Positions 128 through 47,508 of a DNA stretch of 47,508 nucleotides are shown here, piece by piece. The notes beneath the pieces are model-generated. The model saw only the letters and a list, made by a program, of their open reading frames with translations. It was not told the DNA's origin and ran no database searches. Where the stretch lies: positions 1 through 47,508 of IMG/VR virus record IMGVR_UViG_3300028048_000198, one strand, 5' to 3'. How positions within the stretch are numbered: position 1 is the stretch's first letter; each line of letters starts with the position of its first letter. Made by a program: the position numbers and the translations under genes. This stretch comes from a virus.

Positions 128-144
128 AGTTCGTAACATATTTG
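1..144 (+). mobile_element. 3' terminal part of the group I intron that begins at 46725 (1..127 duplicated copy, 128..144 unique); terminal G at 144
   Basis: After the HNH stop there are hairpins cttatg-tgaaag-cataag and ctaat-ggaaacg-attag, then ...catatttG|gaa. G144 directly precedes in-frame exon 2. Confidence 0.75.
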
Positions 145-951
145 GAAAGTCAAATGGAATTGAGAGTACAAGCATACTATACTATTATTCATGCTAGTGA
201 ACCAGATTTGTTAATGTGTAGAGCTTATATGCCTTATAACTGTTATAATGAGAATTCTACTAAATTTGATTATAAAAATCCTGAGCATATAAAAAATTAT
301 GCTAAACACCAATGGTATGAATGTATGACTGGAAAAGAATGGATACCTACAGACTTACATAGTGCAACTACTAAAAATGCATTCCCAGAATTAGAAGAAG
401 GTACTCCAGAATTCAAACATCATAGAAAACTAGGAAAGAGAGCAAACTTCTTGAAAGTTTATCAAGGTGGAGTTGATGCATTAATGAACGCACTAGATGT
501 TTCTAGAGATGTAGCAGAGAAATTAGACAAAGCCTTTTATAAATCTTTTCCTAAAATTAGAGAGTATCAAGAATGGGTTACAGAACATTTAAGTCAATAT
601 GGTTATGTAGAAAACTTATATGGTAGAAGATACTATATGGATGATAGTAGGTTTTACTACAGAGCTTGTAATTACTTAATACAAGGTACTTGTGCAGATA
701 TGGTTAAGACTTTTGAGATAAAAGTTTGGGAGTATTTAACAAAGAATAATTTGAAGTCTAGACTAGTTTTACCAATACATGATGAGTTAATGGTAGCTGT
801 AGCTAATGATGAGATGTTTGTTATAGAGGAAGTTAAAAGAATAATGGAAGATGTTACTGATGTTATTAGGTCTATACCTATGATAAGTGAACCTGAAATG
901 AGTACTACGAATTGGGCTTGTAAGGAGGAGTATGTTATAAATGAAGGATAG
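145..951 (+). CDS. Family-A DNA polymerase, exon 2 (rest of motif A, motifs B and C)
   Basis: ESQMELRVQAYY completes motif A (DYSQIELRVLAH-like) when joined to exon 1 ...LAFCD. RKLGKRANFLKVYQGG matches motif B and LPIHDELMV matches motif C. The TTG start at 142 in the track is the last 3 nt of the intron. Confidence 0.9.
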   Translation, partial: ESQMELRVQAYYTIIHASEPDLLMCRAYMPYNCYNENSTKFDYKNPEHIKNYAKHQWYECMTGKEWIPTDLHSATTKNAFPELEEGTPEFKHHRKLGKRANFLKVYQGGVDALMNALDVSRDVAEKLDKAFYKSFPKIREYQEWVTEHLSQYGYVENLYGRRYYMDDSRFYYRACNYLIQGTCADMVKTFEIKVWEYLTKNNLKSRLVLPIHDELMVAVANDEMFVIEEVKRIMEDVTDVIRSIPMISEPEMSTTNWACKEEYVINEG

Positions 952-5167: not shown

Positions 5168-8100
5168 ATTTCATTCTATTAAATTGTTGTATATATGGAT
5201 TTGCTTTCATACCATTTAATTTATTAAGCTTAGCCATAATACCTTCTACAGATGAATTCTTATTTGCTTGTTTAAGCTCAGCCATAGTGCTAAACTCATA
5301 GCCTTGTTGTTCGTATTGTTTCATCATTGTTTCCAATTTATCTAGTTGGTCATACATTCTATTTATTCTATCTGTGTCAACATTACCTTCCATTGTAAAT
5401 GCATTTCCTAAAGCACTAAGAGGATTACCTTCTCCATTCATAGTTTGTTGTATTCCTTGATAAGCTCTAACTCCAGTTTTAATAGGAACATCTAAACCTG
5501 TTGTACCACCTAATAAATATTCTTGCATCTTAGTTAGTCCTGGGATGTTTGTACTCATTTGTCCTTTGAATTTCTCTATATCATTTCCAGTAAAGGAATT
5601 TCTATTCATAACTAACTCTGTAGGCATTTTAATTCCTGGTGATACTAGATTTACTGTGTTGCTTAAAGGATGCTCAATAGTATCTATTAAGTTACCAAAA
5701 GGCATTGTACCTCTTAGTACTGTATAAGAACCATCTTTACCAATACCTGGAATTGGTATGTATAAATTGTCTTTCATCCATGCAGATACACTCTCACTGT
5801 TGTCATCGGTTGCAGCATCTAATAGACCTTTATAACCTTTTATAAGTCTGCTATATTGAGATGCATTTTTAGATAAGTTTTCTACTTGAAAAGCTAAGTT
5901 TTTCTTCGTAAATGTATAGAAAGGCATAATCCTTTTCATTTTGTTTCTTTCAAAATCAGTTAAGTCTGATGGATCGAATAAGATTTTTCTTACAGCTTCT
6001 CCAGCATCTTCAACTCCTAGTCTATCTAGGAATTTAGTATTTCTAGAACCTTCTATAAATGTAGCAAGTCTAGCCATAGTATCCATAGTGTTATTCATTT
6101 TATTGTTTAAATAAGGTAAACCATCTTTTATAAAGTCCTTAACACTTTTAAGTTCTTTTTCTCCAGTAAAATATTTTCTTAAGCCATCTGGCATATCTGC
6201 TAGGTCAAACGCAGTTAATGACTTAGGATCACCAAATCCTGCATCTATAAACCTATTCCACATTTCTAACATATCACTTTCTTTAGCTGTAAGTGGTATA
6301 TTGTTAGCAGCCTTTTTCATTAAATCATCACTTTTATTCATTATATTAAGTGCTTCTGGGAAAAGTTGAGCTTGTTTAGTTGGGTTAATACCAGCTAAGA
6401 ACATATTTGATGAGTTACCTAAAAGGTTGTTAATCTGGAATGTAGGAGATAATACTTTATTCTTTTTAAAGAAATTCATGTATTTATCATACAATCTTGT
6501 TAGACCTTTAACATCATTTTTATTTGTGCCTATTTCTATAAGTCTTATTACATCTTTATTTATAGCAAGTTTATCACCATTATTTTTAATATACTTAGCT
6601 ATATCTTTCATTTCATCAATACCTAATTCAGAGCTTATTTGTTCTACTTTATTTACCAGTTTTTCAACTTCTCCTTTTTCTAGTTGCTTAAAGCCTCTAG
6701 GAATGGCTGCATCTGATTTAGTAAGTATTTTCATGTTACTATTATTTAACTTATCTATTTTTTGAGCTGTTAATTTTTCAACTAAACTATTATCTCCAAC
6801 TTTCTTAGCAGCTTTTAATTCCTTGTCAATTTCTTTAAGTTCTTTGTAATTACCAAATGTTGCATCGACTAAAACTGAGTTCAATGTTTTGTTATCTTTT
6901 GCTAATTTTGGTATATTTTCTAGATAATTAGTAAATGAACCTGTTAAAGTACCTGAGAATAAGCTACCATCTTTTAATAATTTTTCAACAGCTTGTTTTT
7001 GTTTACTATTTAAGTTATCCATATTCTTTCTTATAGTATCTTCAAACATATTGTTTGCTTCTAAAACAGACATATTGTATTTTCTATCATTTAGTATTCT
7101 AGCATTTCCCTTAGTTTTTACTCTACCATATTCATCAACAAAGTCTAAGTCTAAATCTTTAAACTTATTAATAGTATCTGCATTATAACCATGTCTTACA
7201 TATCCTTTATTATCCTTACCATATCTTTCAACAAGTTTTGTACCAAAATTCTTATCTATAACATCATTAGCTTTATTAAATATGTTATCAGTTTGCTTAT
7301 ATAATTCGTGAAATCTTGTGTCCTTATTATATTTTGCCATCAATTTATCAAGTCGTTCTATATCCTCTGGTCTATAGTTTCCTACTTTAGTAACTTGCTC
7401 AGCAAGTTTATTACCATCTAACGAAAGTCCAGAAATTTCATCAGCAATTTCTTTACCAAATTTATTAGATATAGCCTTATATTGTTTACTAGAAGGATTA
7501 TGAACCATATACCAACCTTCACCTAGTTTTACAAGTCCATCTTTATCAACTGAAACTGACATATCTAAACCTCTACCAGCCTTTGATACATCATCACCTA
7601 TTGCATTAAGTTTCCCAATTATTTCATCACCAGCATCAGCATAGGTAAGTTTTTTATTCTTAGCTTCCTTTATAATGTCATTCATTGTTGTTTCTCTTTT
7701 TAAGAACATCTTTTCCTTAATATCTAAAAGGTCTTTATCTGTAGTGTCTGCTATTTTCTTTATCATATCGTCAACACTATCTGTAGCTTTTACAATTCCA
7801 TTGTCTATATAATATTTTAACTTCTCACTATCGTTTACAACATCTGTAGCATAGTCTGCAATGTCTTTACCTAATTTTTCATATAAAGGTTTTAACTCAT
7901 TAGCAGCTCTAACACTATCAGCATTATTTTTTCTTAAAGTGTTTTTAATATTCTTAGGAATACTAGCAGCAGTACTAAATGCCTTAGAAATTTGGTCTTT
8001 AATATCCTTGTAAGTTTCCAGTTTACCTACAACACTATTTTTTGTTATATCCTTAACATTCTTACCAAGTTCTTTAGCAAGTTTCTCAGCACCTTCTTTT

Positions 8101-44833: not shown

Positions 44834-45330
44834 TGGTATTAGATGAAAAGGAGCTAGAAAAATATAAAACTCATCCTAGAGTTTTAGAAATAAGATTTAT
44901 TTTAATGTTTGATATGTTTGAGAAGGAACTTGGTTACCAACAAGCAACTAAGTCCTTCCAGGCTTTATGTAGTGCGTTTAATTGTAATATGACACTATTA
45001 CAAGCTATTATAAATAGGAGATTTGATATATTAAGAAAGTCAAAAACTAATTTTAGAAGATGGCGACAAGAAGTTGTATTTTCATCCTATGTTTATGGGG
45101 AAAGTATTTATAGAGTTGCTAAATATTACTTTAGAATTAAGCCAGAAGGTATATATGCACAAAAGGAACTCTATGATGTTAACAGATTTTTAACTAATGA
45201 ATGGCTAGATAAACTTGATGATAGTACAATATTGTGTGGAGAATATGCTTATAAAAATGAAGTTGTTAGATTTATGGAAATTATAGATAACATGGCTCTA
45301 ATACTAAAGAAGTGGAAAGGTGATGCTTAA
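44833..45330 (+). CDS. Hypothetical protein (165 aa) between the primase-helicase and polymerase genes
   Basis: TAATG coupling on both sides. Confidence 0.6.
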   Translation: MVLDEKELEKYKTHPRVLEIRFILMFDMFEKELGYQQATKSFQALCSAFNCNMTLLQAIINRRFDILRKSKTNFRRWRQEVVFSSYVYGESIYRVAKYYFRIKPEGIYAQKELYDVNRFLTNEWLDKLDDSTILCGEYAYKNEVVRFMEIIDNMALILKKWKGDA

Positions 45331-46724
45331 TGTTCTTATATCAGAAGTATAAATATAACTATAAACATTTAGATGTACATAATGATGCTGACATATCTTA
45401 TTTACAAGATTTAATACATAAAGCAGATAATGTACAACCTAATTATTTATATTACGATACTGAAACTGATGGATTACATATTATAACATCTAAACCATTC
45501 TTAGTATCATTTGGTTTTAAAAAAGATGATGTAAAAGAAGTTATAACTATGGATTATGATAAGGATATAATGAATTCATTTTGGAAAACAATATCTATAC
45601 AAAAGAATTTGAACAATAATCCAAATTATATAGGTGTAGGAGCACACAATGCTAAATATGATTATCACATGATGGAAAATGGGGGCAGTCCTATTCCAGA
45701 AAATATAGACTTGTTTGATAGTATTACAGTTGCTAGACTTACTGAATATGTTGATGAACACGCAAGTATGAGCCTAGAAACACTTGGTGGTAAATATGTT
45801 GATGAAGAAGCTAAGTTTGCTGGTAAAATTATTAAAGATATTATTAAAAAACTTAATGCTGAAAGAAGAAAACAACTTAGAGAAGATATTATGAACGCAT
45901 TTCCAGATGATGGATTTTTCACTATAACTAAGAGTGGTAAAAAGAAAGCAACAGGTAAACTATCTAAACTTATTGAGAACTATGATAAAACTAGAACACA
46001 GTTCTTAAACGATGATGATCCTTACTTCAAGTTTATTGATGAACACTATAGACCTGCTAGTTATAAAGATGTATATGAAAAAGAACCAGAATTAATGAGA
46101 AGTTATGCTGCTGATGATATTGTTATAGGTATAGAATATCTAGAAAAGGCTATGCCTACATTGTTAAAAGTTGATAAAGACTTAACCGTAACAAAAAGAG
46201 AAGGAAAACTTATTAGGGCTGTTGCTTGGATGGAAGATACAGGACTTAAAGTTGATGTAGATTATGTATTAAATTGTAGAAAGAATATGATAGCTTATAG
46301 AGATTTATTATACTTTGAACTACAAATGTACACAGGCGAAGAGTTCTCAGTAGGACAACATGAATTTATAAAGAAGTTATTATTAGCTAAATATAAAATA
46401 AAAACTGATAAAGCAGATGAAAAAGCACTAAAATATATTAGAGAACATTCTGATAATGAAGAAGTTAAAGATATTTGTTCTAATATACTAGAATTAAGAA
46501 CACTTGATAAATGGATTTCTACTTATGTTGACGGCAAACTTAATGCTGTTGTGAATGGTAGAATATATACAGATATAAATAATAATGGAGCTGTATCTGG
46601 TAGAGTTAGTTGTGATATGCAACAACAACCTAAGGAAGCACTATTTGATAGAGATGGTAATGAGTTATTCCACCCTAGAAGAATGTTTGTTTGTGATGAT
46701 GGTTTCTGTTTAGCATTTTGCGAT
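45330..46724 (+). CDS. Family-A DNA polymerase, exon 1 (3'-5' exonuclease domain and N-terminal part of the polymerase domain up to the motif-A Asp)
   Basis: Exo I is YYDTETDGL, Exo II is NAKYDYHMM and Exo III is YAADD. RRMFVCDDGFCLAFCD matches Taq IRRAFIAEEGWLLVALD. The in-frame stop 3 nt later belongs to the intron. Confidence 0.9.
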
Positions 46725-47508
46725 AAATGATTGTCGCAGTAAAACTCTGTGAATTGCTGGAAACCCCTTAGAGCTTTTAGTACCAAAGTGTAAAAATCTA
46801 AAAGATTGGGCAATCAGCAGCCAAGCCTAGAAATAGGAAGGTTCAACGACTATCGAAAGGATAACGAACCGAGTAGAGTAGGTTTCAAGTGAAACCGAAG
46901 TGCAGAGATATTGACACGAAGTTCCATTTGTGATACCATATAAAAGGTGATAGAAATGGAAGAATATATAAAAAATAATTTTAAAAAATTAACAAAATCT
47001 GAAATGGCTAAAAATCTTGGAGTGTCTTATAATAAAGTAGACTGGTTATGTAGAAAATTAGGACTAAAACATTACAAGTCAGTAAAATATAGTGATTATG
47101 AAATAGAATTTATAAGACATAATTATCCAACTTATGGATCTAAATTTTGTGCAGAAGCACTAAATAGAAGTGAAAATGCCATAAATAAGAAAATAAAGAA
47201 GATGAATTTACAAATAAATTGGAAACACTATTATATAAATACTAATGGTTATCTTGTAAATTGTGAAGATAGAAATAAACCCTATCTAGTTCATAGAAAA
47301 ATTATGGAAGAACATTTAGGTAGGAAACTAAAAGATAATGAAATAGTACACCATAAAGATATGAACAAACTTAATAACGATATAGATAATTTACAAATAG
47401 TGTCAAGAAGTGAACATACTAAATTACATCAAGATTATTTGAAAAAGTGTCAATATAAGATATAGTCTGAACTTATGTGAAAGCATAAGAGAACTAATGG
47501 AAACGATT
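46725..47508 (+). mobile_element. Group I intron (IA2-like), 5' part to the window end (continues 128..144); about 801 nt in total
   Basis: P1 pairs ttgcgaT (exon end) with Gtcgcag (46733-46739), giving a U.G pair at the splice site. The cores agccaagcc and gtgcagaga match the T4 td-type conserved segments. The GC-richer structured sequence at 46725-46945 contains no ORF. Confidence 0.8.
46956..47465 (+). CDS. Intron-encoded HNH homing endonuclease with N-terminal HTH DNA-binding modules
   Basis: HNH motif is VHHKDMNKLNNDIDNLQIVSRSEHTKLH. HTH-like segment is LTKSEMAKNLGVSYNKVDWLCRKLGL. ATG at 46956 lies 6 nt after aaaggtg. Confidence 0.85.
   Translation: MEEYIKNNFKKLTKSEMAKNLGVSYNKVDWLCRKLGLKHYKSVKYSDYEIEFIRHNYPTYGSKFCAEALNRSENAINKKIKKMNLQINWKHYYINTNGYLVNCEDRNKPYLVHRKIMEEHLGRKLKDNEIVHHKDMNKLNNDIDNLQIVSRSEHTKLHQDYLKKCQYKI

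Follow-up and report, generated by a model that had tools for sequence, protein, structure and literature searches.

An apparently mobile group I intron behind the motif A aspartate codon of a phage family A DNA polymerase gene

Described polymerase introns and their relation to the present locus

DNA polymerase genes are the preferred hosts of group I introns in phages (PMC3428280, PMC11878797). Introns with HNH endonucleases have been described in the family A polymerase genes of SPO1, SP82, Bastille and Pf-WMP3, where they occupy site 674 (E. coli numbering), and all phage polymerase introns described in the same work are of the IA2 type (PMC3428280). Two further polymerase sites are listed there, namely, 676 in phiL7 and 881 in PhiI and W31. 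Here we describe such an element in an IMG/VR virus genome; the whole stretch of 47,508 nt that was analysed is referred to as the window. The locus is best explained, with high confidence, by a mobile IA-type and probably IA2 group I intron that interrupts an essential gene, that for the family A polymerase, in an uncultured Bacillota phage of the gut or rumen.

The introns of SPO1, SP82 and Bastille lie, like that of the window, within the highly conserved active-site region, but their site 674 (..DP|NLQ..) is located about 30 codons upstream. The HNH motif of I-HmuI is N-terminal, whereas that of the window's enzyme is C-terminal and preceded by HTH-like helices, which resembles the arrangement reported for I-PfoP3I of Pf-WMP3 (PMC3428280). 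The Pf-WMP3 intron also shares with the window the IA2 type (probable in the window), the family A polymerase of a phage as host gene and a stop codon just past the 5' splice site. It differs in its insertion site (674 versus 705) and resides in a cyanobacterial podovirus, and the sequence comparison was one at the Pfam level. The intron of the T7-like phages PhiI and W31 (I-TslI, site 881 in motif C; cited in PMC3428280) adjoins a catalytic Asp of the polymerase, as the window's does.

Enterococcus phages of the Saphexavirus group (fHoEfa06, PV296020) carry a polymerase intron that shares an identical 32-nt J8/7-P7-P9 segment with the window (47459-47490), and its ORF is likewise located before the 3' strand of P7 in the same host gene family. 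Its insertion site, however, is ..SNP|NLQQQPK (674), and its HNH protein and the remaining intron differ from those of the window. The fHoEfa06 annotation (PV296020.1 43139-48170) reads DNA polymerase / HNH endonuclease / DNA polymerase and leaves the intron unannotated. A megablast of the region against GenBank phages returned a 32-nt core match only and no cultured close relative; the best polymerase match among cultured phages has 34% identity (Paenibacillus phages).

The archetype of subgroup IA2 is the T4 td intron, which has the core order, the location of P7.1 and P7.2 between P7 and the 3' strand of P3, and the J8/7-P7 segment AAGAUAUAGUC in common with the window. The td endonuclease gene is also intron-borne and overlaps the core with its end, but it encodes the GIY-YIG enzyme I-TevI, resides in the P6 region and interrupts the gene of thymidylate synthase. 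A 31-mer comprising the 3' strand of P7 and P9 (GATATAGTCTGAACTTATGTGAAAGCATAAG; window 47460-47490) recurs exactly in 26 IMG/VR contigs (loci L020-L043), among them several giant-virus MAG contigs. This recurrence suggests that the 3' core of the intron is either widely shared or very constrained.

The interrupted polymerase gene and its empty-site alleles

The window is a circular record with direct terminal repeats (database class) of 127 nt, positions 1-127 being equal to 47382-47508, and the unique circle measures 47,381 nt. On account of this repeat, the positions of the record ends are arbitrary. An earlier note on this DNA, made from the letters and their translated reading frames, had proposed that the polymerase ORF halts at 46730 within motif A and is resumed in frame at 145, on the other side of the circular junction and after about 801 nt, with LAFCD|ESQMELRV as the restored motif. 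All of these points held. The ORF 45330-46730 closes with ..LAFCD-K-stop, the codons AAA TGA placing an in-frame stop one codon past the splice site; the gene runs from 45330 to 46724, is interrupted by an insert of exactly 801 nt (46725-47508 plus 128-144) and continues from 145 to 951. The union of T46724 with G145 yields an open frame of 733 aa (734 codons including the terminal stop).

Exon 1 has 465 codons, which cover the 3'-5' exonuclease domain and the polymerase domain's N-terminal portion. Its terminal codon, GAT, specifies the catalytic Asp of motif A, and its end is set by 13 intron-less relatives (see below). Exon 2, with 268 codons plus stop, opens with ESQMELRV, the remainder of motif A, and holds motifs B and C (..PIHDE..). 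The comparison of an intron-less relative with Taq polymerase aligned FCDESQMELRV to ALDYSQIELRV and placed the Asp on D610, the metal-binding Asp of motif A (D705 in E. coli). The coordinates of all features are compiled in Table 1.

Table 1. Features of the polymerase locus; positions are those of the window
Feature	Position	Strand	Basis
Exon 1, family A DNA polymerase	45330..46724	+	Pfam DNA_pol_A_exo1, DNA_pol_A profile positions 22-153; PHROG 17
P1 with internal guide	46718..46739 (46718-46725 with 46732-46739)	+	U46724.G46733 wobble at 5' splice site
Group I intron, first 784 nt, to arbitrary record end	46725..47508	+	Rfam, same-site introns, covariation
Ribozyme core, 5' part	46745..46907	+	Rfam alignments; unconstrained alifold; compensatory changes in P3, P5a, P6, P6a, P7.2
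P3	46745-46750 / 46902-46907	+	
P4	46755-46760 / 46814-46819	+	
P5	46764-46766 / 46808-46810	+	
P5a	46774-46780 / 46798-46804	+	
P6	46820-46822 / 46840-46842	+	
P6a	46826-46829 / 46834-46837	+	
P7, 5' strand	46848-46852	+	
P7.1	46853-46872	+	
P7.2	46881-46896	+	
P8 stem, loop holding the endonuclease gene	46908..47456	+	46908-46917 / 47447-47456, perfect 10-bp inverted repeat
HNH homing-endonuclease gene (169 aa)	46956..47465	+	Pfam HNH_3 E 3e-14; HTH_6 E 1e-5; PHROG HNH families
Ribozyme core, 3' part	47457..47508	+	second RF00028 match; compensatory changes in P9, P9.1
J8/7 AAGAUA	47457-47462	+	
P7, 3' strand UAGUC	47463-47467	+	
P9 hairpin	47472-47489	+	
P9.1	from 47491 to 132 past the junction	+	
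Intron, last 17 nt: P9.1 3' strand, tail, terminal G144	128..144	+	127-nt repeat; ..UUG| in 11 of 11 introns
Exon 2, polymerase	145..951	+	Pfam DNA_pol_A profile positions 184-379, E 1e-33; contiguous with exon 1 in 13 relatives

Exon 1 was used to retrieve 15 related IMG/VR contigs, which were examined by tblastn. In 13 of them residue 465 of exon 1 directly abuts residue 1 of exon 2 in a single frame (..D|ESQMELRV). The comparison with intron-less polymerases, which the earlier note had recommended, thereby delivered 13 uninterrupted alleles that define the homing site, and as they join exactly at the position corresponding to 46724/145, the junction is no chance reading. In the intron-less contig L005, most of both exons matches the window at 95-99% identity, and the 801 nt are missing. 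The boundaries read ..T|A.. at the 5' end and ..G|G.. at the 3' end; they are unable to slide because the intron's first base (A) differs from that of exon 2 (G) and its last base (G) from that of exon 1 (T). In a separate observation, identity to L005 is 69-78% over the initial ~300 nt of the polymerase gene (45330-45630) and 95-99% beyond, as though recombination had occurred with a breakpoint within the exonuclease domain.

A search with exon 1 against 5.8 billion proteins extended the comparison to the closest 120 clusters. Among these best 120 listed clusters, 97 are full-length polymerases (the sequence D-ESQMELR was read in 87 of the 97), and 19 consist of exon 1 alone and terminate 0-6 residues past the Asp, just as expected from the warning that gene callers would return polymerase fragments. 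Eight truncated clusters were traced to their contigs, and every one of them has an insert at the same nucleotide. A 169-170-aa HNH_3 gene is present in six of the eight; the inserts of L045 (278 nt) and L049 (337 nt) are devoid of an ORF. Two further inserts at this nucleotide were found in L007 (810 nt, with an HNH gene 64% identical to that of the window) and L013 (304 nt, without an ORF).

A homologous intron is accordingly located at the same nucleotide in ten other relatives, three of which lack the ORF. Remnants of the 3' end of the ORF are retained in L013 and L049, P8 is closed by short loops in the ORF-less relatives, and the differing deletion limits of L013, L045 and L049 indicate that the ORF was lost at least three times. 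The closest intron is that of L044, with 90% identity over the intron and 91% for the HNH protein, though just 83% for the polymerase at the DNA level. The nearest polymerase relatives of the window, L005 and L016, are empty.

The location of the intron across the record ends, together with a 127-nt repeat that resembles an assembler overlap, could point to mis-joined contig ends and hence to an artefact of assembly. We regard this as extremely improbable, since ten independent assemblies contain the same architecture in contiguous form, L044 with its 90% identical intron being one of them.

Ribozyme fold and covariation

The covariance-model scan proposed in the earlier note yielded a match of RF00028 (Intron_gpI) to positions 46679-46905 with 50.7 bits, which is just above the cut-off of 50 and was obtained with a 1-kb stretch and laxer filters only; a search of the own genome scored 50.8 bits. 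A second match (47378-47489, 18.7 bits) contains the J8/7-P7-P9 consensus AAGAUAUAGUCU. The ORF-less L013 orthologue (304 nt) reached 80.1 bits (E 7.5e-21, model positions 1-253). Gathering-score scans of the whole window (any Rfam family) and of L007, L013 and L014 returned no match, and neither did an E-value scan of 2.5 kb of L007 (5300-7800). The default scan misses the intron because of its fast filters and because the ORF splits the core, so these results do not indicate absence. A missing covariance-model match, one of the refuting conditions named in the earlier note, would therefore have been a misleading criterion with the default scan. An intein and a group II intron were rejected as candidates on account of the in-frame stops within the insert and of the empty gathering-score scan, which includes the group II families.

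The structural composition of the intron conforms to the group I core (Table 1). P7 is formed by GACUA and UAGUC, the expected pseudoknot, and unconstrained RNAalifold on three ORF-trimmed introns recovered P1, P3, P4, P5, P5a, P6, P6a, P7.2, P8, P9 and P9.1. The pairing between the guide GTCGCAG (46733-46739) and the exon end UGCGAU, with U.G at the 5' splice site, was already recognized in the earlier note and could be confirmed, as could the end of the intron in G144, given that all 11 same-site introns have a terminal G. The segment between the 5' strand of P7 and the 3' strand of P3 comprises 49 nt in the window (46853-46901) and 45 nt in L013. It contains P7.1, which is present and variable among the relatives, and P7.2, which has two compensatory pairs. 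The P7.1/P7.2 pair is typical of subgroup IA (Michel and Westhof, as cited in PMC11878797), and this insertion together with the literature makes IA2 the probable assignment. A convincing conserved P10 was not found; a 5-bp pairing UGAUU / AGUCA (exon 2) would be possible in the window but is not conserved in L007 or L013.

The 11 same-site introns were aligned without structure fitting after trimming of the P8 loop, and 76 base pairs were scored with a script of our own. Standard pairs occupy 97.6% of the cells from P1 to P9.1, compared with 36-37% in registers slid by 1-3 columns. Changes on both sides were observed in 26 of the 76 pairs, whereas 500 column shuffles gave 13.2 +/- 1.8 with a maximum of 19, a comparison that somewhat overstates the significance because the introns are related. 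The slid registers, a control free of this weakness, contain 1-3 doubly changed pairs. Compensatory changes are distributed over P1, P3, P5a, P6, P6a, P7.2, P8, P9 and P9.1; P4 and P7 are uninformative in this respect because both are invariant. One example is the first pair of P8, which changes from A-U to G-C in four relatives. Another is P1, where three pairs co-vary with the codon preceding the Asp (UGC/GCA, AUC/GAU and CUC/GAG for Cys, Ile or Leu), while the U.G pair at the 5' splice site is invariant in all 11 introns. All of them end with ..UUG, followed by the exon sequence GAAAG. This strong compensatory covariation in the aligned sequences supports the ribozyme fold.

The same data bear on a rival reading in which the polymerase is truly split, i.e. 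a free-standing HNH cassette separates two associating polypeptides (..LAFCDK and M-ELRV..) and no RNA splicing takes place. In its favor, a weak GGA-type motif precedes an in-frame ATG (154-156), from which gene callers do start exon 2. However, the cut would separate the catalytic Asp from the remaining motif A, the RNA in between fits the group I model and has kept its helices via 26 compensatory pairs, and the guide sequence co-varies with the exon. Moreover, the ORF-less versions of 278-337 nt at the same nucleotide are not predicted by a cassette. The ribozyme evidence leads us to reject the split polymerase, to which we assign very little probability, in favor of a group I intron.

On this basis the transcript would consist of exon 1, the 801-nt intron and exon 2, in this order, and the intron RNA would fold into a P1-P9.1 ribozyme. 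The guide GUCGCAG would hold the exon end UGCGAU in P1 with U.G at the cleavage site, an external guanosine would attack after U46724, and the freed exon would then attack after the terminal G144. The resulting ligation ..LAFCD-ESQMELRV.. would restore motif A and thus the 733-aa polymerase.

The HNH endonuclease gene, probable mobility and implications

The endonuclease gene is preceded by a Shine-Dalgarno motif (AGGTGA, 46945-46950) at a spacing of 5 nt. Its final codons overlap the 3' strand of P8 and J8/7, and its stop codon TAG represents the start of the 3' strand of P7. The gene is intron-encoded and lies inside the loop of P8; the earlier note had placed it in a peripheral loop, but the designation "free-standing" does not apply. 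The HNH_3 domain comprises residues 110-155, and weak matches to HTH families of Pfam are located in the N-terminal half. A pattern HH..D..NN..N..H..H with the residues H132, H133, D135, N140, N141, N145, H154 and H158 is invariant in eight orthologues (64-91% identity). The AlphaFold model (mean pLDDT 80, pTM 0.41) predicts five N-terminal helices and a C-terminal strand-strand-helix unit. Foldseek with this model against the PDB retrieved no structure at E <= 0.001, the best non-significant matches being tandem HTH DNA-binding domains, and a sequence search against solved structures found none at E <= 0.1 (best E 0.14). The protein is not of the I-HmuI type, given its C-terminal HNH behind HTH-like helices and no sequence relative among the solved structures. 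Among cultured phages, the best full-length matches are HNH genes within the DNA methylase genes of cluster J mycobacteriophages, which show 29% identity to window positions 46956-47462 over nearly the full length (compare the insertion element in PMC11855218).

Homing cycles are known to leave dead copies behind, and three relatives have lost their ORF, so it is conceivable that the intron is real but decayed, with a dead ribozyme or endonuclease resulting in a crippled polymerase gene or an immobile element. This scenario is judged highly unlikely. Every core helix pairs in the window's copy, the HNH ORF has its full length with all invariant residues present, and the record, rated complete, contains no other polymerase gene, for which reason a loss of splicing would be lethal. 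For a functional intron, the HNH enzyme (169 aa, with its HTH-like N-terminal half) most likely nicks or cuts intron-less alleles near D|E during mixed infection, by analogy with I-HmuI, I-BasI and I-PfoP3I, and homing would then result from repair that uses the intron-bearing genome as template.

The distribution of the intron is patchy, as documented by the 19 of the best 120 listed polymerase clusters that end at the motif A Asp. One synonymous position of the exon is associated with its presence: at base -4 (window 46721), all 11 alleles with the intron have C (TGC, ATC, CTC), and the 13 empty ones all have T or A (TGT, ATA, ATT; Fisher p 4e-7, uncorrected for relatedness). In P1, the guide base opposite the C at -4 is an invariant G. 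Three explanations fit this C: it may have been co-converted with the intron, it may be selected because it stabilizes P1, or the surviving empty alleles may be those that the endonuclease recognizes poorly. A co-conversion tract is not evident in the exon flanks of the window, which are as near to intron-less L005 as to intron-bearing L044, and there is no clear signal because these flanks are conserved in all three alike.

A second group-I-like intron interrupts the same polymerase gene in L007 (6806-7702), L014 (5996-6871; the same in L015) and L047 (~5250-5850). It is located directly after the codon of the motif C catalytic Asp (..PIHD|E..), a position at which the window has no insert, and its guide GUCGUG pairs with the exon sequence CACGAU. 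This is apparently the same region as site 881 of PhiI and W31, but the endonuclease types differ. In L007 the P6 region harbors a LAGLIDADG_2 protein (Pfam E 1e-6), and gene calls in L047 revealed an HNH/NUMOD1 ORF. The introns of motif A and motif C have the initial ~14 nt and a 20-nt block in P4-P5 in common, and CGAU|GAA is the sequence at either insertion site. It is a tentative and rather doubtful idea that one IA-type lineage colonised both catalytic-Asp codons and that the C at -4 marks an arms race between endonuclease and resistant alleles. If true, the guide would have been retargeted, either through reverse splicing or through ectopic homing, and the endonuclease genes (HNH in P8, LAGLIDADG in P6) would subsequently have been swapped.

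Elements of this type are familiar from SPO1, Bastille, T7-like phages and Pf-WMP3, the present one is common in the phage lineage of the window, and the understanding of how such introns work is unchanged. The insertion site (Taq D610 / E. coli D705) is apparently new in relation to the listed sites 674, 676 and 881, with the limitation that the sites of Bastillevirinae are partly unlisted, and would represent a fourth one in the polymerase, after the Asp of motif A. Our literature search found no report of an intron at the DYSQIELR motif, which is no proof of absence. With regard to annotation, pipelines that depend on the default Rfam scan under-call group I introns with an ORF, whereas a 1-kb stretch passes the cut-off, and a record of two polymerase fragments and a stray HNH gene would be wrong. 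The polymerase of the window phage and of about one-sixth of its relatives (best 120 clusters) would instead be one spliced protein, of 733 aa in the window. The natural series of empty, ORF-bearing and three ORF-deleted alleles could serve studies of homing and target resistance in uncultured gut phages.
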